Numbered from the stretch's first letter, positions 15,153 to 54,974 are shown. The stretch: DNA of 64,000 nucleotides from an uncultured Candidatus Saccharibacteria bacterium (GCA_964612745.1 CAZTCH010000006.1:5477-69476), one strand, 5' to 3'. Notes: generated by a model from the letters alone, not told the origin. Translations and numbers: made by a program.

Positions 15153-15227
15153 TCGGGAGTAGCTCAGCGGTAGAGCGGCACGCTGTTAACGTGATGGTCC
15201 TGGGTTCGATCCCCAGCTCCCGAGCCA
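15153..15227 (+). tRNA. tRNA-Asn (anticodon GTT), with an encoded CCA end.
   Basis: Manual cloverleaf folding: acceptor TCGGGAG/CTCCCGA, D-arm GCTC/GAGC, anticodon loop CTGTTAA, T-arm CTGGG-TTCGATC-CCCAG, and a CCA 3' end. Confidence 0.85.
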
Positions 15228-16313: not shown

Positions 16314-17045
16314 ATGATTACACTCATTGAACCATTTGGCTACCACATTTCTACCAACACCATAGGCGAAGCGTGGCATGAACTATTCTCCACTGTTTTG
16401 GAGCATGGGGCCGTTGAATTTGACGAAGGACGAGAAAGGTTGGCTCTACAAATGGTTAGGATTCATTCTAAGTCTCAAAACTTCCCGGACGCAATTATAC
16501 AAAAATTTGGTAACGAGAAGAATCTTCAGTCGATAATTGAGCTCACATTTGGCGATCGCACTATGTACGATGTAGACGTAGTGAAAAGCTTCACAGTAGG
16601 CGCTAAAAGCTATTTCGCACGTTTAGAAGAAGGTAGGATGGTGGAGTTTGTCGTAGACCGCTTAAGCATTATCCCAGAGAGCAAAAAAGCAGTTATCGTA
16701 TTTCCAACGTACGAAGACTATCGTGCAATACTTACGAACCACACCAATGACTACCTCCCTTGTATTGTTTCTATACAATACAGAATGCGGCCTAATAATG
16801 GCGGTTGGTTGCTGAATACAATATTCAACATGCGCTCGCTCGATGCCTACCAGAAAGCGCACGGTAATTTAGCTGCGATGGCCATCTTAACAAGTAATAT
16901 CGCAGAACAAATAAGCAAAAGGCTAGGGGTGGAAGTAGTACCTGGTACCATAGACGGTTTGATAGTGGACGCCCATATATATAACGAAACAGTAAGCGAG
17001 GCAAAAGATAAAGTACAATTAATCAAAAGTGAATTACATGATTAA
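16314..17045 (+). CDS. Divergent thymidylate-synthase-fold enzyme (ThyA/dUMP hydroxymethylase family).
   Basis: ...LPCIVSIQYR...MRSLDAYQKAHGN...DAHIY aligns to the ThyA segments PCH-FQF, RSxD, GxPxN and DTHLY. The catalytic Cys and the pyrimidine-binding Asn are retained. The rest of the protein is far from canonical ThyA. Confidence 0.8.
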   Translation: MITLIEPFGYHISTNTIGEAWHELFSTVLEHGAVEFDEGRERLALQMVRIHSKSQNFPDAIIQKFGNEKNLQSIIELTFGDRTMYDVDVVKSFTVGAKSYFARLEEGRMVEFVVDRLSIIPESKKAVIVFPTYEDYRAILTNHTNDYLPCIVSIQYRMRPNNGGWLLNTIFNMRSLDAYQKAHGNLAAMAILTSNIAEQISKRLGVEVVPGTIDGLIVDAHIYNETVSEAKDKVQLIKSELHD

Positions 17046-17892
17046 TCCTAAGAGTCGGGATGAGATTACTCGCAGCCTAGAGAAAAGAACCAAGGAAAAC
17101 TTAGACTCACTACAGATTATCGAAGATGCTCTATTAGTATTGAGAAGCTCCATCTTCCAGATGCCAGAACCAGGTACTCGCGTAGTTACTTCTCTTTCCG
17201 GAGGGGTGGATTCCGTAGCTTGTTGTGCTATATTGCTGGAAGCCTTTCAGTTAGAAGTGTTTCCATTTTTTATCAATCGGGGTCATCGCGCAAAGGATAG
17301 AGAAATGGAAAGTATTCAATTTTTCGCCGATTTATTTTCTAAAAGATATCCTAACTCTTTCCATGCGCCCGTTGTAATGAATGTGGATATTCCGCCAAAG
17401 TCTATCAAGCCACTTTTGGATGGGAATAAGAACCATGACGTAGGAATACCTATGAGGAATTCCATAATAAATGAATACGGTGTGCAGTATGCCTTTGCTT
17501 TGAGCAGTAAAGCATCCCCGGTAAGAAATGTCTTCTGTGCTTTAGTTGCGTCAGATGGGGACTTTATGTTCCACTCTACTCTAACGGCGTTGCGTTCACA
17601 GATGCTCCATACTTGTATAGATATGTCTGACTCCTCGTGGCAGGTCAGTTCTGTTGCTATCGAACGAGAAATCGGACATTACTTAGACAAGGCAGATTTA
17701 ATTCAAATAGCTGCTGGTATGGACATGCCACTTGAACGCTCTAGAACCTGCTATAGCGCTGACATACTTCACTGCGGCGCTTGTGAGGCATGTTATGACA
17801 GAAAGTCCGCATTCGAAAAAGCAGGGATTCAGGATAAAACAGAATACACTGATACACGTTCAGCCGCGTTAATTAAACCAAGCTATTTATAA
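17029..17892 (+). CDS. QueC-like PP-loop ATPase (7-cyano-7-deazaguanine synthase family).
   Basis: SGGVDS PP-loop, an IPMRN motif, and a C-terminal zinc-binding CYSADILHCGACEACYDR typical of QueC. Confidence 0.8.
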   Translation: MNYMINPKSRDEITRSLEKRTKENLDSLQIIEDALLVLRSSIFQMPEPGTRVVTSLSGGVDSVACCAILLEAFQLEVFPFFINRGHRAKDREMESIQFFADLFSKRYPNSFHAPVVMNVDIPPKSIKPLLDGNKNHDVGIPMRNSIINEYGVQYAFALSSKASPVRNVFCALVASDGDFMFHSTLTALRSQMLHTCIDMSDSSWQVSSVAIEREIGHYLDKADLIQIAAGMDMPLERSRTCYSADILHCGACEACYDRKSAFEKAGIQDKTEYTDTRSAALIKPSYL

Positions 17893-22750: not shown

Positions 22751-22796
22751 GAGCCAACAAAAAAGTAGTACTTCGGTACTACTTTTTTGTTGGCTC
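22751..22796. terminator. Strong hairpin (21-bp stem GAGCCAACAAAAAAGTAGTAC/GTACTACTTTTTTGTTGGCTC) after the IMPase gene.
   Basis: A perfect inverted repeat with a 4-nt loop. Confidence 0.7.
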
Positions 22797-22925
22797 TAGA
22801 AAGGGCTGGGGATCGAAGGGAGCGGTTCGCTACCAGCGAAATTTCATGCGAATGCTTGGAGTATGAAATAGTGGCGGGCCAGCGTTAGGTGTTTAAATAG
22901 AGGCGCCTGAAACCTTTTCTTTTTA
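22776..22925. repeat. Copy 1 of a tandemly duplicated intergenic element of about 110-130 bp (TTGGCTCTAGAA...GCGTTAGG...).
   Basis: About 85% identity to 23040-23150. Confidence 0.6.
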
Positions 22926-23039
22926 GCTTGAGCGGAGGAGGGCACCCAAGCAAAATAAATAGCACCACTCATGCGTGGTGCTATTTTATTTGATTAATAT
23001 TTCGTTTGAGGATTCAAATAAAGGTACCTGACACCTTTT

Positions 23040-23216
23040 TTCTTGGCTCTAGAAGGAGCTCAGGGATCGAAAAGAGCGTTCTGCTACCAGCAGAATTTCA
23101 TGCGAATACGTGGAGCATGAAATAGCGGCGGGGTCGCGTTAGGCGTTATTCGAAACGACCATGAGCCTGTCGAATGGGAGTTGAGAATAGCCGTGGGTGA
23201 CCGATCCTCAGCTCCC
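23040..23216. repeat. Copy 2 of the same intergenic element. It ends in a 16-nt near-copy of the tRNA-Asn 3' end.
   Basis: CGATCCTCAGCTCCC at 23202-23216 versus CGATCCCCAGCTCCC in the tRNA. The distal part (...TTCGAAACGACCATGAG...GAGAATAGCCGTGGG) recurs at 54715-54790. Confidence 0.6.
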
Positions 23217-23221
23217 ATAAT

Positions 23222-23557
23222 TTATTCTCCTAAAATATCTTTTAAGACATTGTCAAATCCGAAAAGTTTTGAACGGGCAATGGCAAATACTTCTTGTAGT
23301 TTATCTCCGTGAGTTATACTGAATCCTTCCTCGCCAATACGCATGAATTCACTATGGTCATCTCTATTAGGATAATAGTACAGCCAATGTGCTCCTTCTG
23401 AGTCTTTCAGAACAGACCAGAGGTATTTATCGTCGGGGTAAGTAAAGTAAAACTCTTCACTTCCGCTCGGGGCATCGTCTGATTTTCGTACTGATTGAAT
23501 TTTTTCTTGGTCTGAAACTATTTTTTCGACGAGTTGTTGAATTTTTAGATTATTCAT
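23222..23557 (-). CDS. Hypothetical protein (111 aa, acidic, soluble).
   Basis: An ORF with a 1-bp gap to the upstream ORF. No recognisable motif. Confidence 0.55.
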   Translation of the reverse strand: MNNLKIQQLVEKIVSDQEKIQSVRKSDDAPSGSEEFYFTYPDDKYLWSVLKDSEGAHWLYYYPNRDDHSEFMRIGEEGFSITHGDKLQEVFAIARSKLFGFDNVLKDILGE

Positions 23558-23558
23558 A

Positions 23559-24002
23559 TTACTTGCCTTTAGAATTATGGTTTTCTACCTCTAAGGTGGT
23601 TATGCTCTCCTTAATCTCGCTATATAAACTAATTTTGTCTGTTTCGTTAACCTGTTTACCTTCATCAATATCGGTCATCATGACGCGAACTCTTTTCATC
23701 ATATTGTCCCCGAAGTGTTTGCTTAAAGTGGGATTGCCTTTAATTTTTCCCAGGATATGAGCTAAAGCAGAACGAAATTTTTTTGATTTATCTTTATCGT
23801 CCTGACTGCTTTCATGTAGGGTTTCTATCCAATGTCTTAGGTCCGCCAAGGATGCTTGGAGAGAGTAACTTAGAAGAACTGCAAGTGCAGCCGATATTTT
23901 CTTACGTTGCGTAATGGCTACGATAATGGCTGCTACCCCCACCGTTATCTCTGTAATATTCGCTATAAATGAGATGCCTGCTTGAATAGTTTGGAAGGTC
24001 AT
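23559..24002 (-). CDS. Hypothetical membrane-anchored protein (147 aa, N-terminal TM helix).
   Basis: An ORF with a hydrophobic N-terminus, paired with 23222-23557. Confidence 0.55.
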   Translation of the reverse strand: MTFQTIQAGISFIANITEITVGVAAIIVAITQRKKISAALAVLLSYSLQASLADLRHWIETLHESSQDDKDKSKKFRSALAHILGKIKGNPTLSKHFGDNMMKRVRVMMTDIDEGKQVNETDKISLYSEIKESITTLEVENHNSKGK

Positions 24003-24329
24003 AATGGTCCACCCGGGCTGGATTGTTCAATCTAGCACCGTTAATCATGCAATACTTGTTATTTTACTCCCTAGTCTACTCATTTTAATCCTCCGTTGGT
24101 TTTCTGTCTATAAGTATGTTTTTGTGCATTAAAGGATTAATGGGAAGAAAGAGTTAGAAAAGGTCTTGGAGGATTATTTTAAACAGCACCCTTGGGGTAA
24201 GTAGATTTAAATAAGGGTGCCTGACACCTTTTCTTTCTATTTCATGTCTAGTTAAAATTGCCGAATTTAGCTTACGAGAAAATGAAAATGGTGGTAAAAT
24301 TATGATAAATCATCAGACCCTTTTTTGTT

Positions 24330-27300
24330 ATGACCCCTACGACAGCGCAATTTGATAGCAAAGTGCTCCGACGCTCCAAGAGCGAAAGCGACTTTAACTT
24401 GTATAGAGCTGCCTTAGAGTGGGGACTTATTGACCCTATTGTGATAGAAAGTTCGGAAGATTTAAAGTCGAAGTATAGGTGGGAAGATCGTGTAAGTCCA
24501 TACAAGCATCAGGTAACTAACCTGATTACTTTCTGTCGGAGGCTTCCTGTGAGTTTATTGGCAGATGATGTGGGCTTGGGTAAAACCATAAGTGCAGGGC
24601 TAATTGCAAGTGAACTTATTTCCCGAGGTCGTCTTACAAAGATATTAATAGTTTGTCCAAAAATCCTACGGGACCAGTGGCAAGAAGAGCTGCGTGTAAA
24701 ATTTGATATTCAATCCGTCATTGTCACAGGCCAAGAGTTAGTTAAAGTAAAGCCACCTGAAGAAGGTGGCGCAGTTATTACTACTTATAATACCGCCCGC
24801 TTGTATCTTGATAAGATAGAGAAGGTTGGGTACGAAATGTTAATCCTGGACGAAGCGCATAAGCTAAGGAATCTGTATGGGACTGACGCGGCACCAAAAG
24901 TCGCATTGAAATTTAAGAAAGCGTTAGCTGATAGATTATTTCAATATGTATTAATGTTAACCGCAACACCTATCCATAATAGGTTGTGGGATATTTATTC
25001 TTTGATAGATTTGTTGGCTGTCGCTCGAGGCCACGAAAACCCCTTTGGTCAGGAGGGGATATTTGCTCGTAAATATATAGAGGGAGATAAAATTCAGGCT
25101 CGCCGACTACGGCTAGAGGCTAAGGAGGAATTCCGAGACAATGTATACAGGTATATGTCTCGAATTAGACGCGGAGATACAGACTTAAGTTTTCCAGAAA
25201 GAGTTATTCAACTGCACCCAGTTGAACCATCAGCAGAAGAAGTAGAATTGCTGAATTTAATCCGAGAACCAATCAAGGAAGTTAATTTTCTTTCTCAAAT
25301 AACTATATTACAAACTTTTGTTAGCAGTCCTGAGGCTCTGTTGAGAGTCCTAGAAAATATGGCGCTAAACAAAACGTTGCCCAAATCCTTACAACTACAG
25401 GATGTCAAAGCAATTGTTTCAAGAATCAAAATTACAGCTAAGTTGAAAGGGCTGGGTATTTTGATAGAAAAACTTAGCCAAGAGAAACCGGAAGATTGGC
25501 GTGCAGTAATATTTACAACTCGAAGAGAAACTCAGACTACAATACAACACTTTCTTCAACAGAAGGGTATTTCTTGCGGTCTGATTAATGGTGACTCTGG
25601 ATCTAGAAACCAGGATACTATAGCGAATTTCACTGCTGATGTCCCCAAGATTCATGTAATAGTTTCTACAGAGGCAGGTTCTGAAGGTGTTAACTTACAA
25701 AAAGCCAACGTGCTGGTTAATTACGACTTACCGTGGAATCCCATGATCGTAGAGCAGCGTATTGGTCGCATTCAACGTCTTAGTTCTAAATTCGCTAAAG
25801 TATCAATCTTTAATATTATTTTAAAAGGTACTTTTGAAGAATACATTGTGGCAAGGTTGGTCGAAAAGTTGCAGATGGCTTCTAATGCAATAGGAGATAT
25901 TGAAGCATTATTGGAAGCATCTGGGATTGACGATGATGATAATGACTCCGATGGGTTTGCAGATAAAATAGGTAAATTAGTGCTAGCCTCATTGGCTGGT
26001 ATGGATGTCCAAGAGTCTACTTTACGAATAGAAAAAAGTATAGAAGACGCTAAGTTTAAGCTTGAACAAGAAAAACAGACTATAAATACTCTTTTGGGCA
26101 GTATGAATGGCGCCGAGGATATGGGCCCAAAGTGCCCTAAGCTACCTACCCAAGTTAGGTCTATTAATGTCCAATCTTTTGTGATGCAGGCACTTGAAAG
26201 CCTTGGAGTGCGTATAGAAGAGAAATCTGGTCAGCGTGTTGCTGTGTCGGAAAACCAACAAGAGGTAATTCGTTTCTCGGACGAAAAAGTCGATCCTGAT
26301 TTAATAAGTACTCTATACGCTCCTGGTACACCTGCATTTGAACGTTTAGTTTCTCGGGTTGCTGCCAGAGATTTACACTTAACTGAAGATGTAGATACAG
26401 ATATAATAAACTCCTTAAAGGAGATATCTTGTCAGTGGGCAGAAGGTTTCGAGGGAGAGATACAAGACTCCAGAATTACAGAAACTTGGCGGTGCTTTCA
26501 AGGCAGCGCGTTGGTGCGTGTCAGAGCAACAGTTGCATGCGATAGTTATGAAAGACTAATAGATATAGACTGTAGTCCGGAAGACCACTGTATGGAGACA
26601 GGGAAATATGGTCTAGACACGATTGGTGAAATAATCGACCAGCCCAGCAGTGTGGGTGTGGTAACCAAACACCTATATGAGAAGGCTCTTATGGATGAAG
26701 GTATATCAGAATTCAGTAGGTTCTATACAGAACGCCGTGCCCAAGAAATTAGCGCATCGGGTAGTGACGAAAGAAAACGAAAAAAAGTAGAAGATGACTT
26801 CACGCCTCGTCTAGATATAGTTCTCGTTGGGTTAAAAGGGACCGTTTATCGTAAGATAAAGACACTAGCTTCTTATAAATTAAGTGCTGACTTTGAATAC
26901 CAAAGTTCTCTCTTAATAACGCCTTACACAAATACGATAAATCAATCTCCGGATTTAGTGAGGTGCGATAAAACTGGCAGGATGGCACCACAAGACTGTA
27001 TTGCTAAATGTGAGATTAGTGGGTCTCGCGTATTGAGGCACCTCTTAGTGGCGTCTGAGTTAAGCGGTCGATTAGCTCTGCCAGAACATATCTTAATATG
27101 CAGTCTAAGTACTAAGCGTGTGCTAATTGACGAAGCCGACAAATCTTCAATTACAGGGAAGATGATAACAAAGAACTTACTCTATACATCAGCAGTAAGT
27201 GGTAAGACTGCGGAGCCAGAATTTTTTAGCAAGTGTGAATTTACTGACACGCATGCTTTGGAAGCTGAGTTGGAAATAAGTCAGGTTTCTGGAAAGAAGT

Positions 27301-28031
27301 TTAGAGTGGATGAGCAGCTACGCTCTCATATTTCTGGGAAGATTGGTCACAAACAAGAATTTATTTTTTGTGCAGAGACTAATGTGCCGCTTTTACCAAC
27401 TGAAGCCGAGACATGCGAGGTAACAGGTAAAGTAGTTGTGCCAGGTTTGCTAGAGAAGTGTGAGGTGACAGGGAAAATGGTATTGCCAGATTTGCTCGAA
27501 AAGAGTGCGCTGAGTAGTAAGAAGGCATTAAAGAAATATTTTGTCGCCAGTAACCTTTCTAATGCTAATATTTTGGAGCAGGAAGCAATTAGATCAGCTA
27601 TTGGTAATTTCTGCACACCTCAAGAGGCCAGGCTGTGCTCTTGGAGTGGCAAACTTTGTCATCCTGATGATTTGAGAATCTGCGACCTAACCGGACTAGA
27701 GATTGAGTTTGAGTACGCTACTAGTAACGGAGGTACTCGACTGGGCCCTCTCGTGCTTATGCTTGATGGTGTGTCGCGAAAGGGAGACTTCTCTGAGCAC
27801 TGGCGAGCTCTGGCAGATAATTTGACTAAAGCTTTGGGTGGTGGGCGAGCTAATATTGAGGCTGCAACGCTTTCGCCAAATAAACAAAATATTGCAGTGT
27901 GCGCTGAGGTGCGTACATGGGTTGGTCTGCAAACCCGTCATACTGGATTCGTGTTTTCTGTATCAGACAATAGTATTATAGGCAGAGTTGTTCAGGGGAA
28001 GAGGGTTACTGGTGGCTGGTCCATTCGTTGA
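24330..28031 (+). CDS. SNF2-family ATPase/helicase (1233 aa) with a large C-terminal repeat domain of unknown function.
   Basis: The N-terminal roughly 530 aa carry DVGLGKT (motif I), DEAHKLRN (II), TATP (III) and QRIGRIQR (VI). The C-terminus carries about 14 degenerate 15-residue repeats with a C-x-x-T/S-G-K motif, including an exact tandem 45-bp DNA repeat at 27412-27501. Confidence 0.9.
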   Translation: MTPTTAQFDSKVLRRSKSESDFNLYRAALEWGLIDPIVIESSEDLKSKYRWEDRVSPYKHQVTNLITFCRRLPVSLLADDVGLGKTISAGLIASELISRGRLTKILIVCPKILRDQWQEELRVKFDIQSVIVTGQELVKVKPPEEGGAVITTYNTARLYLDKIEKVGYEMLILDEAHKLRNLYGTDAAPKVALKFKKALADRLFQYVLMLTATPIHNRLWDIYSLIDLLAVARGHENPFGQEGIFARKYIEGDKIQARRLRLEAKEEFRDNVYRYMSRIRRGDTDLSFPERVIQLHPVEPSAEEVELLNLIREPIKEVNFLSQITILQTFVSSPEALLRVLENMALNKTLPKSLQLQDVKAIVSRIKITAKLKGLGILIEKLSQEKPEDWRAVIFTTRRETQTTIQHFLQQKGISCGLINGDSGSRNQDTIANFTADVPKIHVIVSTEAGSEGVNLQKANVLVNYDLPWNPMIVEQRIGRIQRLSSKFAKVSIFNIILKGTFEEYIVARLVEKLQMASNAIGDIEALLEASGIDDDDNDSDGFADKIGKLVLASLAGMDVQESTLRIEKSIEDAKFKLEQEKQTINTLLGSMNGAEDMGPKCPKLPTQVRSINVQSFVMQALESLGVRIEEKSGQRVAVSENQQEVIRFSDEKVDPDLISTLYAPGTPAFERLVSRVAARDLHLTEDVDTDIINSLKEISCQWAEGFEGEIQDSRITETWRCFQGSALVRVRATVACDSYERLIDIDCSPEDHCMETGKYGLDTIGEIIDQPSSVGVVTKHLYEKALMDEGISEFSRFYTERRAQEISASGSDERKRKKVEDDFTPRLDIVLVGLKGTVYRKIKTLASYKLSADFEYQSSLLITPYTNTINQSPDLVRCDKTGRMAPQDCIAKCEISGSRVLRHLLVASELSGRLALPEHILICSLSTKRVLIDEADKSSITGKMITKNLLYTSAVSGKTAEPEFFSKCEFTDTHALEAELEISQVSGKKFRVDEQLRSHISGKIGHKQEFIFCAETNVPLLPTEAETCEVTGKVVVPGLLEKCEVTGKMVLPDLLEKSALSSKKALKKYFVASNLSNANILEQEAIRSAIGNFCTPQEARLCSWSGKLCHPDDLRICDLTGLEIEFEYATSNGGTRLGPLVLMLDGVSRKGDFSEHWRALADNLTKALGGGRANIEAATLSPNKQNIAVCAEVRTWVGLQTRHTGFVFSVSDNSIIGRVVQGKRVTGGWSIR

Positions 28032-28119
28032 TTATTCTTGTTCTGCCAGATTAAGAAAAGGTACCATAAAGAAAAGGTGTCAGGTACCTTTTGTAGTTAC
28101 TTTTTGGTATTATGTCTGT

Positions 28120-28394: not shown

Positions 28395-28820
28395 ATGGCA
28401 AGCGTAAATCCTTGGATTAACTTTAACGGCAATGCGGAAGAAGCATTTACGTTTTACAAGTCAGTGTTTGGCGGAGAGTTCGGCAAAGTTGTACGGTTCA
28501 AAGATCTTGCCAGTGCAGAATTTCCTGTCCCAGAAAACGAGCAAGAAAAAATCATGCTTATTACCTTGCCAATTGGGCAGGGAAGCGAGCTCATGGCGAA
28601 CGACGTGCCAGCAGTTATGGGCAAAGTAAACGAGCGGGAAAACAGAAGCAAAATTTCCGTGCGCGCAGAAAGCAAAGAAGAAGCAGAAAAGTTGTTTGCT
28701 GGTTTGTCTGCTGGGGGAGAGGTAGAAGGTCCAATGGGCGACGGTCCGTGGGGTTCTTATGCTGGCATGTTCCGCGACAAGTACGGCATTGAGTGGATAA
28801 TCGAGTTTTACACAAAATAA
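28395..28820 (+). CDS. VOC-superfamily protein, PhnB-like.
   Basis: NPWINFNGNAEEAFTFYKSVFGGEF is a PhnB/3-demethylubiquinone-like N-terminus. Confidence 0.8.
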   Translation: MASVNPWINFNGNAEEAFTFYKSVFGGEFGKVVRFKDLASAEFPVPENEQEKIMLITLPIGQGSELMANDVPAVMGKVNERENRSKISVRAESKEEAEKLFAGLSAGGEVEGPMGDGPWGSYAGMFRDKYGIEWIIEFYTK

Positions 28821-30050: not shown

Positions 30051-30428
30051 ATGACCGTTATGTCTATATCTAGAAAAAAATTTGTGCTCCTGTTTTTACT
30101 CTCTGGGTTTGCCTTTATGGCAATTACTACTTCTTTGTTGGGAAGTACAGGACCGCGTGGGTTTCCGAAACAGCCGGACTCTGTGTTACGTACGGGGAGT
30201 GACTCACCAGTAGCGTGGAAGCGCGTGCTGGCTGCGGGGCTTTATCCGATTAAAGTTGTATTGCTCTGGCCGTTAGCATTGCCAAACAGTACTTTTTTAC
30301 AAGATGATCCACCACCACCGTTTGTGGGTGCGTACATTGCGGCGTATTGGAGTTTACTCGCACTCGGTTTACACGCTGTACTGAAAGTGATGGCCCGAAC
30401 GCGACGAGTGTCAGTTTCTAAGGTGTAA
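30051..30428 (+). CDS. Hypothetical membrane protein.
   Basis: An ORF with several TM helices. An alternative start lies at 29988. Confidence 0.5.
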   Translation: MTVMSISRKKFVLLFLLSGFAFMAITTSLLGSTGPRGFPKQPDSVLRTGSDSPVAWKRVLAAGLYPIKVVLLWPLALPNSTFLQDDPPPPFVGAYIAAYWSLLALGLHAVLKVMARTRRVSVSKV

Positions 30429-30670
30429 TAAAACAACCGCCGGTGGCGGTTGTTTTATTTATATTCCAGTTCTGCAAGGTCTATGTGTACGTTGTTCTTT
30501 TCTGCGATTTTAGCAATCCAGCTTACTATGACATCTTGGCGGTGTTTGAGCTCCAAGTAGCGCTCGTCGGAAAGGTGGTTAAGAAAAGGTATCTGGTATC
30601 TTTTCTTAATACCTTTTCTTAAATTCGTATACAAATTTGTAAAAATTGTCTGGCTGTTATTACTGCTATA

Positions 30671-30850
30671 ATGATTTATATGGAACCAGAAAATATAAAA
30701 AAACAGCAACAGAGACTGGAGCAAATATACAAGAATTATTTACAAGAACTTGAATCTTTATTGAATGAAAGAAAACATATAATTACGGATTTTGTGCATG
30801 CGTTAGATGCAAAAAAGATTCAAGCCATTAAAAAGGTGCTAGGTTTATGA
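30671..30850 (+). CDS. Small 59-aa ORF, predicted coiled-coil, translationally coupled (ATGA overlap) to the downstream kinase-like gene.
   Basis: MIYMEPENIKKQQQRLEQIYKNYLQELESLLNERKHIITDFVHALDAKKIQAIKKVLGL. Its stop overlaps the ATG at 30847. An extended -10 TGCTATAAT sits immediately upstream. The ORF is below the 60-aa cutoff of the ORF track. Confidence 0.4.
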   Translation: MIYMEPENIKKQQQRLEQIYKNYLQELESLLNERKHIITDFVHALDAKKIQAIKKVLGL

Positions 30851-31968
30851 GTATTCCAAATCAGGCCTATGAAAAACCAAACATGGAAGATATCGGGCCA
30901 GCCAATGAGCTTGCAGAGCAAGTAATAACTTCTCGACAAAGTTCCGAAAAAGGAGTTTCTAGAGAACAATTAAGACACCTTGCGAGTGAGGTGGCCCAAC
31001 ACGTCGAAGCCCAAGCAGCTCGAGTCGCGAGTGCTGATCTTGGCCTAGATACAGCTCTCGCAGATCCGCATGTGTCTCCTGAGCTTCTTGCAGAAACGAA
31101 GCTAGAAGCAAATGTTGAAAATCGCCTAACTCTAAATAGTGTTAGTTTGGAGGCGCTTGCAAAAGACACACTTTCGCAAGTTAGAGACGTAGAAACAGAA
31201 GTAGTCATGGCAGAGAAAGAGGAGCTAATGGCTAACGCGCCTGTGTTGGGTCCTGGAAAGTTTTTGGGTGGCCATGAAGGGAACGCACATCTGGTGGAGT
31301 TAGGGGGTTTTGGATATGCGGTACAAAAGACTTATGACATGGAGAGTAATCCTCTTGCAGAAGAAGTGCGAGAACGGCGGATTCATCAAGAAAGAGCAGT
31401 TTATGTTCTTGATAGAGCAATAAGGCTTGGAGTAGTCCCTGTAACTATAGAAAGAGTTATCAACGAAAGACTTGCAAGTATGCAAGAGTTTATAGAGGGT
31501 GCTCAAACAAGCAATAAGGTGAAACCTGAACAAGTACCAGTTTCGGAGATGCAAAAAATCGTACTGTTAGATTTAATAACAACAAACTGGGACCGTAGGA
31601 CGAATCCTGAAAACTTACTCGTCCGTCTTTCCGAAGATGGTTCAGGGCAAGATCAGGTGTTCGCTCCAGATAGTGGAGCTTCTGCTTTTAACCCCCGCAC
31701 TGCTTTTGCCTCGGAAATTCCACAAGAATTAACTGAGCAACCACTAGATGCAAACATTGTTAAATTATTGCACAACTTTAATAATAATCCGGGAAAGGTC
31801 ACGCAACTTCAAGCAGATCTAACCTCTTTGCTTGGAGAGAGAACTGCGACATTGTACATTTTACGGATTGACGGATTAAGCCGTTCAATAGATGCTAATG
31901 GGAAGGTGGATTCAGAAAAGCTACGGATGAATATGCAGAGCAACTTTGAAATATCGGAGTTAATGTGA
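30847..31968 (+). CDS. PI3/PI4-kinase-like protein (type II PI4K-like catalytic segment) with an acidic, low-complexity N-terminal region.
   Basis: LLDLITTNWDRRTNPENLLV followed by VFAPDSGASAFNP resembles the catalytic loop (DRxxxN) and the DxG activation segment of PI3/4-kinase-fold enzymes. Confidence 0.55.
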   Translation: MSIPNQAYEKPNMEDIGPANELAEQVITSRQSSEKGVSREQLRHLASEVAQHVEAQAARVASADLGLDTALADPHVSPELLAETKLEANVENRLTLNSVSLEALAKDTLSQVRDVETEVVMAEKEELMANAPVLGPGKFLGGHEGNAHLVELGGFGYAVQKTYDMESNPLAEEVRERRIHQERAVYVLDRAIRLGVVPVTIERVINERLASMQEFIEGAQTSNKVKPEQVPVSEMQKIVLLDLITTNWDRRTNPENLLVRLSEDGSGQDQVFAPDSGASAFNPRTAFASEIPQELTEQPLDANIVKLLHNFNNNPGKVTQLQADLTSLLGERTATLYILRIDGLSRSIDANGKVDSEKLRMNMQSNFEISELM

Positions 31969-32144
31969 GGTATGTTGAGTTAAGAAAAGGTACCAGGTAC
32001 CTTTTCTTAACACATACTCGCACTCGGTTTACACGCTGTACTCGGAGCGGTATTTCGCAAGTAGCGGCTATAGGGTTGTGCGTAGTGGCGTGTAGCTACA
32101 GTTCGCTCTTGAACAATACCCTGTTTTCAGGGCATACTACGTGC

Positions 32145-54190: not shown

Positions 54191-54974
54191 TAACCAGTTT
54201 GACAGGGGAGAGATTTTACAGCATAATAAATATATGGGGATGACGGATTTCGACAGTTCTTTCAGATGTACGTAATATGCAAGACGAGCACGCCTATTGG
54301 TCTCGATAATCCCGTGGGCATCCAACAAATGCAGCAAAAACTGCTTGGTCTAAAGTAGAAGCCGCGTTCAACGCAGCTACTTTGGTACCAGTGTATGCCT
54401 AAACTTTAGGTGTATGCCTAGCACTTGTGACTTCCCGCCACAAGGTTCGCTAGTTCATTAGGGAATATATATTCAGTGGTTGGTTTACCTGCTGAATACG
54501 AACTTTGTAAGCCGACTGTTGTGGCTTGTCGTCAGCTACGATACGCAACAGAACTATTAGCTGACTAATCTTGTGAATAATTGCTACGTCAACAAGTCCT
54601 GGACGGGGGTTTAACTCCCCCCATCTCCACCAAAAAATAATGCGCCTTTAGGCGCTTTTATTTTTTGGTATAGCGGGGAGTTAAAAATAGCTTGCAAGTT
54701 GCCTTGAATGGCAAGTTGCAAGCGTCTGGGCCCGCCGAAGCGTCATTCGAACCGACCATAGGGAGGCGAGAATAGCGTGAGGTGGGGAACTCCCCCCGTC
54801 TCCATTTTTAATGTAACTATGAAGTTTTGGGAAGGTTTTGATATTTTTGCGACCCAGACAAACTTTTTCATAGTGGGTGAGTAACGCGTAAGCCTTGACT
54901 TATCAAGGCTTTTAATGCATAATAAATATCCAGAATAAGCTGGATAGTATTTTTACAACCGCAGGAGGAATAAC

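Follow-up and report, generated by a model that had tools for sequence, protein, structure and literature searches.

The window analysed here is a stretch of 64,000 nucleotides (nt) from an uncultured Candidatus Saccharibacteria bacterium, and the element under study is the open reading frame (ORF) at 24330-28031 on the plus strand, which the ORF list and its translation identify as a complete gene of 1233 amino acids (aa). Its product joins a SNF2 ATPase to a family-specific C-terminal region, and an identical protein is also encoded on an NCBI contig and a Logan contig. The original prediction, made from the sequence alone, took the N-terminal half to be a SNF2 ATPase, and this is borne out by the domain searches. 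The motor core (24552-25781, plus strand, delimited by Pfam, motif positions and a PDB profile) carries the Pfam domains SNF2-rel_dom (aa 75-314, E = 1.5e-25, 90.4 bits against a gathering score of 24.9) and Helicase_C (aa 380-484, E = 2.1e-19, 70.2 bits against a gathering score of 23.5), and the catalytic motifs I, II, III and VI are intact (GLGKT82, DEAH174, TATP211 and QRIGR476). Since both domains score above their gathering thresholds and these four motifs are preserved, the protein belongs to the SNF2/Swi2 ATPase superfamily, and the gene appears to encode an intact, active-looking SNF2 double-stranded-DNA translocase. We lean, if only slightly, towards the view that it is a lone representative of a SNF2 subfamily that is DrmD-like, associated with defence and marked by a new tail.

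NCBIfam and PADLOC matches cover the motor only, namely those to DrmD, BrxHI, DpdE, HmaA, ZorD and RapA. The best-scoring library models for the core are those of defence SNF2s, with DrmD at 198 bits followed by BrxHI, DpdE, HmaA and ZorD; every NCBIfam match of the protein lies far under its curated cutoff. In the PDB, the sequence profile matches SNF2 cores only (1z63, which is SsoRad54-like, and RapA), and a ResIII match in Pfam (35.8 bits) is confined to the generic N-lobe (aa 79-215).

From aa ~540 to 1233 there is no family match in Pfam, NCBIfam or PADLOC, the tail searched alone against PADLOC likewise gives none, and no nuclease or methylase is recognisable in the C-terminal half with these three libraries. 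The claim that this half holds no such motif therefore stands, extending to any catalogued domain or defence-system model, as does the claim that a single-gene architecture of this kind matches no named system, as PADLOC models match the motor and none matches the tail. AlphaFold2, run on the 692-residue tail with a 40-sequence alignment, returned a model with a predicted local distance difference test (pLDDT) of 86.8 and a predicted template modelling score of 0.50, in which a helical linker is followed by alpha+beta subdomains with long hairpins, a repeat array, and a helix-plus-sheet cap. The linker (aa 542-612; 25953-26165, plus strand) is modelled at lower confidence as two long helices (fragment residues 3-14 and 19-48; block pLDDT 56-85). 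The alpha+beta region that precedes the array (aa 613-878; 26166-26963, plus strand) matches no known fold and holds the most conserved motifs of the family, RVRATVAxDSYERL, EFxRFYxERR and KxEDxFTPR. The C-terminal cap (aa 1133-1233; 27726-28028, plus strand), two helices and a four-stranded antiparallel sheet in the model, is basic in composition, with an isoelectric point (pI) of 10.8. A Foldseek search of the tail model against the PDB found nothing under E = 0.04, and the BFVD matches of the tail were viral proteins without characterisation, LIM-like and metallothionein-like ones among them, with low template modelling scores (TM-scores). The ~690-residue tail is new, being absent from Pfam, NCBIfam, PADLOC and the searchable literature and having no fold match in the PDB.

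The array consists of 17 tandem 15-residue units in register, one of them a residue short (aa 879-1132; 26964-27725, plus strand; delimited by register, periodicity, predicted secondary structure and the columns of cysteine and histidine), with the unit consensus [C/S]-x-[LIV]-[S/T]-G-[K/R]-x-x-L-P-[D/E]-[E/L]-L-x-x. The 15-residue modules had been noticed in the original prediction, which counted about 14 of them; the number was too low, and the periodicity itself is real, with 53 identical residues at lag 15 compared with 15.6 +/- 3.8 (maximum 29) in 2000 shuffles and elevated values also at lags 30, 45 and 60. The structure prediction that had been proposed as a check on the repeats yields regular units, each modelled as a strand-turn-strand followed by a short 3-10 turn (block pLDDT 83-93). 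An exact tandem repeat of 45 base pairs had also been claimed at 27412-27501 and read as a sign of recent repeat expansion or contraction. Neither claim survives: 33 of the 45 positions are identical there and 35 of 45 in codon register (27414-27503), Tandem Repeats Finder reports 78% matches, and the remaining pairs of units are no more than 53% identical in their DNA. In view of this low identity and of the register of 17 units that orthologues keep, recent expansion is rejected, and the window gene shows no sign of recent contraction either. With a pI of 5.4-6.6 the array is neutral to acidic, and within the unit a K/R at position 6 and D/E at positions 11-12 are conserved. Next to the basic cap, such a composition would suit a rigid stalk more than a surface that tracks along DNA.

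With its motif C-x-x-[S/T]-G-[K/R], the unit looks like a CxxCG knuckle minus its second cysteine, as in the zinc-ribbon and zinc-knuckle arrays of FYVE, RIM, LIM and metallothionein-like proteins. TM-scores to such arrays and to the 15-residue repeat of the adenovirus fibre shaft are low (0.1-0.25), a resemblance that does not amount to membership. Invariant cysteine and histidine residues occur at the array ends only, as Cys3His sets (C879, C890, C894 and H904; C1095, C1103, H1111 and C1118), and most units hold at most one cysteine, so that they cannot each bind metal. A divergent relative, P0255, has true CxxC clusters beside its array. We infer that the units may descend from zinc knuckles, with metal sites surviving at most at the array ends, where a zinc site is conceivable from the residue pattern.

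Searching with the tail alone retrieved 225 proteins, whose full-length members (~1170-1211 aa) have the same SNF2 head and are 44-55% identical to the window protein across 100% of the tail. Forty orthologues (44-53% identity) align over the whole tail with a mean column identity of 64%, and across phyla their consensus array preserves the 17 units and their register. A profile search of 1.84 billion representatives, clustered at 50% identity, gave 850 members at E<=1e-3, of which 381 reach E<=1e-30. Relatives (42-54% identity) are found in Patescibacteria, Nitrospirota, Acidobacteriota, Bradyrhizobium/Rhodopseudomonas/Bosea, Ignavibacteria, Planctomycetes, Elusimicrobia, Verrucomicrobia and several proteobacterial classes. 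When one genome per species is considered, a relative is encoded in 140 of 185,579 species genomes, i.e. less than 0.1%; the gene is not a clade-wide housekeeping gene, which the original prediction had named as a finding that would refute it. Carriage by phages or plasmids finds no support, as relatives were not found among IMG/VR viral contigs, INPHARED phages or PLSDB plasmids. Judging from this distribution, the family is probably an accessory gene spread by horizontal transfer.

Array length varies about fourfold within the family, from 17 to ~71 units, and is constant in the short class to which the window gene belongs. Many relatives are 1350-2100 aa long with up to 12 matched stretches, corresponding to an expanded array; in P0138 (2098 aa) there are 53 strict [CS]xx[ST]G motifs, of which 38 follow one another at exactly 15 residues, giving ~71 units. 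Frameshifts, fragmentation or truncation affect at least eight of 80 copies. Among the degraded copies, that of L007/L026 (9683-12298) breaks off at aa 366, with an integrase/excisionase and a Wadjet (JetABCD) locus alongside, that of L001 (9682-13366, Bradyrhizobium sp. STM 3562) has a frameshift near aa 100, and that of L006 (13413-13616) has one near aa 1170.

The ORFs neighbouring the gene in 80 short-array loci were clustered, 62 of these loci having full flanks. The only recurrent partner is an immediately adjacent protein of ~500 aa, a Cas4-like nuclease/exonuclease, which belongs either to the TM0106 family of RecB-like nucleases (TIGR03491, 250 bits against a cutoff of 97, with PDDEXK_1 and RNase_H_2) or to DUF2779 (PF11074), the partners passing curated cutoffs. 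Both types combine a Cas4-like PD-(D/E)XK domain with a clade-F 3'-5' exonuclease (PMC3985635, PMC13621843). The nuclease is adjacent in 26 of the 80 loci (19 of the 62 with full flanks), lying upstream in 13, downstream in 12 and on the opposite strand in 3, often with overlapping stop and start codons. The SNF2 gene and its partner are fused in L052 (6803-12079), where a single ORF of 1758 aa carries the TM0106-family nuclease at the N-terminus of the SNF2-tail protein; this fusion connects the two genes in the Rosetta-stone sense. In L049, TM0106 is fused to a superfamily 1 helicase next door. No description was found in the searchable literature of the 15-residue repeat or of a link between TM0106 or DUF2779 nucleases and a SNF2 protein.

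No neighbour other than the nuclease is conserved, and the immediate neighbours of the 80 loci match 131 different Pfam families, among them serine recombinases (5), DUF2130 (4), PIN (3), RmuC (2) and Type ISP (1). Other homologue contexts include Wadjet with an integrase, and insertion sequence elements with Ku and LigD in Bradyrhizobium. In four Patescibacteria loci (L010, L012, L019 and L029), the SNF2-tail and nuclease pair sits in a conserved block with TerL (matching phrog_38 at 2e-64), TerS, a ParB-N6 methylase and two large serine recombinases, and the whole has the appearance of a prophage-like element from the candidate phyla radiation.

The clearest defence signal in the family comes from the long-array relatives. 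In L089 the gene order is MmeI-type methylase, RES, SNF2-array, GmrSD, DrmA-like, MZB/DUF1998 and PLD; in L090/L091 it is DrmA-like, MZB, PLD and then SNF2-array; and in L106 the SNF2-array gene is followed by DrmA (54% identical to that of L089) and a PLD-containing protein. GmrSD lies near the SNF2-array gene in L101 as well. In class 1 DISARM, a SNF2-like DrmD precedes drmA, drmB and drmC and an N6-adenine methylase (bioRxiv 10.1101/2021.12.28.474362), and the long-array members are placed like DrmD, next to genes for DrmA, MZB/DUF1998 (DrmB) and PLD (DrmC) and to an N6-adenine methylase, so that the three long-array arrangements match the published class 1 layout. The DrmA/B/C, methylase, RES and GmrSD proteins of L089/L090 have no BLAST match in the six-frame translation of the window, and DrmA/B/C are absent from all 80 short-array loci by BLAST against their ORFs. 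A large family, a frequent Cas4-like/exonuclease partner that the window lacks, and long-array relatives in DISARM-like operons are additions to what the original prediction contained.

The window gene itself can not be assigned to any of the known systems that use related motors. DrmD has a similar SNF2 core, DrmD being the top NCBIfam model and DrmD and BrxHI the top PADLOC models. However, the window protein scores 198.3 bits where 610 are needed and 182.7 where 950 are needed (equivalog models NF038317 and NF038318), the motor alone aligns, the DrmD models have no counterpart to the tail, and the window has neither drmA, drmB and drmC nor the methylase context; it is therefore not a DISARM DrmD. 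HmaA, which by itself protects against T4 (PMC11232893), and ZorD resemble the family in coupling a SNF2 motor to a PD-(D/E)XK nuclease. They differ in that the SNF2 motor is fused there to a PD-(D/E)XK or Mrr-like nuclease, whereas here the Cas4-like plus RNase-H-like exonuclease protein is a separate neighbour (or fused in L052) and is missing in the window; the HmaA and ZorD models match the motor only and ZorABC and HmaBC genes are absent, so neither a Zorya nor an Hma assignment holds. The DpdE score is 167.8 bits against 500, with a QueC-like gene (17029-17892) as the sole Dpd-like neighbour and no TGT-like gene among the annotated neighbours. RapA/HepA, SsoRad54-like and YqhH-type SNF2 proteins are the best solved-structure or plasmid relatives of the motor (~33% identity) but have other accessory domains, none with the repeat tail, and the RapA score is 127.6 bits against a PRK04914 equivalog cutoff of 576. 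A type III restriction-modification Res subunit is rejected, there being no methylase among the annotated neighbours, no nuclease domain in the tail and no ResIII match beyond the N-lobe, and so is BREX BrxHI/HII, as the PADLOC BrxHI match is motor-only and the annotated neighbours in the window include no BREX-type domains.

In the window, the gene is flanked by a motif that the original prediction placed at 24209 and 28070 and took for inverted ends of a cassette. The motif is present (arms at 24213-24236 and 28068-28091, 92% complementary), although not as a bracket. It is itself a hairpin palindrome with further copies at 22906, 23020, 30585 and 31986, giving nine strand matches compared with 0.01 expected, spread over five to six intergenic sites in the interval 22.9-32 kb, and its G.U pairs agree with the strand of the gene that each copy follows, with a T-run after each. 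The upstream copy, AAGGGTGCCTGACACCTTT (24213-24231), is followed by TCTTTC, lies 99 nt before the start codon and is terminator-like on the plus strand, as judged by its repeat arms and folding energy (-9.4 kcal/mol on the plus strand, -5.6 on the minus strand). The gene's own terminator (28055-28092, plus strand) forms a 10-base-pair stem, AAAAGGTACC/GGTACCTTTT, around the shared motif and is followed by TTTT (-14 kcal/mol, z -2.9). A minus-strand copy, identified by motif match and folding, lies at 23020-23038 downstream of the minus-strand ORFs at 23222-24002, and two longer plus-strand copies lie at 30578-30612 (-21 kcal/mol, z -6.2) and at 31979-32013, the latter including a perfect palindrome of 33 nt (-20 kcal/mol, z -6.3). 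The motif is thus a dispersed, shared hairpin of the intrinsic-terminator type and not a pair of cassette ends. Recurrence and strand-specific terminator behaviour rule out cassette or recombination ends, and an integron or other recombination cassette is rejected in view of the dispersal of the motif and the lack of an integrase among the annotated neighbours.

Two other repeats lie near these hairpins. A non-coding direct repeat of ~110 nt, 82-88% identical and without a match to an Rfam family, occurs at 22782-22893 and 23035-23147, in the gap that separates the IMPase-like gene from the minus-strand ORFs, and a terminator-like hairpin abuts each copy. An exact 28-nt direct repeat, TACTCGCACTCGGTTTACACGCTGTACT, at 30355-30382 and 32015-32042 brackets an unannotated ORF of 373 aa (30847-31968) and two near-identical palindromic hairpins of 33-35 nt, and looks like a duplicated junction or insertion scar.

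The flanks of the window are ordinary Patescibacteria chromosome, with type IV pilins, metabolic enzymes and a transfer-messenger RNA gene (54236-54632; its predicted tag, ending in ...LVPVYA, is unusual). Among named organisms, Candidatus Doudnabacteria has the best relative of the window's RsgA (57% identity), and the host is accordingly placed in the Patescibacteria. The SNF2 gene lies in a stretch of low guanine-plus-cytosine (GC) content at ~16-32 kb (0.395-0.434, compared with 0.46-0.49 in the flanks), together with ThyA-like, QueC-like, Ham1, dNMP-kinase-like, GT1, HD, IMPase, glyoxalase, alpha/beta-hydrolase and NUDIX genes. The stretch starts ~1 kb after tRNA-Asn (15153-15227) and may be an island inserted there; the annotated genes include no integrase, and no tRNA-derived direct repeat of 18 nt or more is found in 15-34 kb. 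A link to the adjoining nucleotide-modification genes had been suggested from their proximity. It is not upheld, as these genes never recur beside SNF2-tail homologues in ~95 loci. The glyoxalase-family protein encoded at 28395-28820 is 73% identical to the product of L086 18654-19127, a gene lying 6.6 kb downstream of a SNF2 homologue in another Patescibacteria genome, and in L005 a glyoxalase gene likewise adjoins the SNF2 copy; this proximity may be coincidence or residual synteny. Hidden Markov models of both partner subfamilies and tblastn detect no partner nuclease anywhere in the window, and the window thus lacks the two-gene module of SNF2-tail protein and TM0106 or DUF2779 nuclease. 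The window copy is an orphan with its own terminator in a low-GC stretch of Patescibacteria chromosome.

A role in defence, as first proposed, is the best-supported reading of these data, and the subfamily would be one that is DrmD-like in its core and set apart by its tail of helical linker, alpha+beta region, 15-residue hairpin units and basic cap. Several observations weigh against it. The support consists of sequence and gene-context evidence, the equivalog scores for DrmD, DpdE, RapA and ZorD are all far under cutoff, and the closest plasmid SNF2 cores are small YqhH-type proteins in non-defence contexts. DISARM adjacency is seen in three independent loci of ~8 with usable flanks, one of which (L089) also has a second SNF2 gene. 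Immediate neighbours are mostly heterogeneous and often housekeeping (ribosomal or chaperone operons), neither a partner nuclease nor a methylase or DISARM gene accompanies the window copy, and 43 of the 62 full-flank loci (~69%) are solo like the window. The pI of the array also does not favour a DNA-tracking role for it.

If the subfamily does act in defence, its architecture and neighbourhoods suggest that the motor would load on invading or otherwise aberrant DNA and translocate, while the tail could serve as a rigid stalk of tunable length that positions the basic cap or recruits a partner and gates the motor. The partner nuclease, or DISARM, might then degrade the DNA. A solo copy such as that in the window would work with an unlinked effector or block through translocation alone. 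A bolder form of the defence reading, which we put forward tentatively and consider doubtful as it stands, is that the SNF2-tail protein and the TM0106 or DUF2779 nuclease make up an undescribed two-gene (sometimes fused) anti-mobile-element system, in which the stalk of 17 to ~71 units would be a length-tunable ruler or sensor, and that some DISARM loci would also have taken up the same SNF2 module as their DrmD-type component. Were this so, the window would hold a minimal solo form in a reduced-genome Patescibacteria cell. That the adjoining nucleotide-modification genes are used for self-marking is a more remote possibility.

It is unlikely that the protein is instead an accessory of DNA repair, recombination or transcription, a Rad54/RapA-like motor that remodels stalled complexes or DNA ends while the Cas4-like/exonuclease protein resects, with no role in immunity. 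The best PDB relatives of the core and the nearest plasmid-borne cores, which are YqhH-type, point this way, helicase and RecB/Cas4-like nuclease pairs are classical repair machines (PMC5704561), the Bradyrhizobium copy lies near Ku and LigD, and a Nomurabacteria copy adjoins the hrcA-grpE-dnaK operon. However, a gene found in so few species genomes with 44-55% identity between phyla is not vertically inherited, pseudogenes are frequent, copies are associated with recombinases, a prophage-like element and DISARM, GmrSD or Wadjet, and the RapA equivalog cutoff is missed widely.

There is rather little to commend the idea that the gene is cargo serving a mobile element itself, in replication or packaging, superinfection exclusion or counter-restriction, in the manner of the SNF2-methylase dyads documented in phages and conjugative elements (PMC5512222). 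The pair does lie between large serine recombinases and adjoins TerL, TerS and the ParB-N6 methylase in the four Patescibacteria loci, and tyrosine integrases and transposases are found near others; but the viral and plasmid collections yielded no relative, most loci including the window lack element genes, and the window flanks are ordinary chromosome. As prophages commonly carry defence genes too, such surroundings do not help to choose between the two readings. That the window copy is a functionless remnant, orphaned by loss of its nuclease partner, is improbable: its closest relatives, L009 (54%) and L010 (51%), do keep a DUF2779 partner and degraded copies are common in the family, but the 3.7-kb ORF is uninterrupted and retains all catalytic motifs and family-invariant residues in a small-genome lineage, and the full-length genes of the 43 solo loci argue that solo forms are maintained.

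Returning to the solo, defence-associated SNF2 protein that we prefer, its motor class and the helicase-plus-nuclease logic of its relatives are already known, and what is new is the tail, the variable 15-residue array and the TM0106/DUF2779 pairing, none of which was found in Pfam, NCBIfam, PADLOC or the searchable literature. SNF2 motors are core to DISARM, BREX, Zorya, Dpd and Hma, and the accessory domains that decide what these motors sense are poorly understood; the family provides a large, confidently folded tail without a PDB fold match and a repeat rod that varies fourfold between subfamilies. It also gives a first functional context for the widespread, uncharacterised TM0106 and DUF2779 nucleases, and it would add a possible defence gene to the Patescibacteria, whose small genomes carry few known systems.

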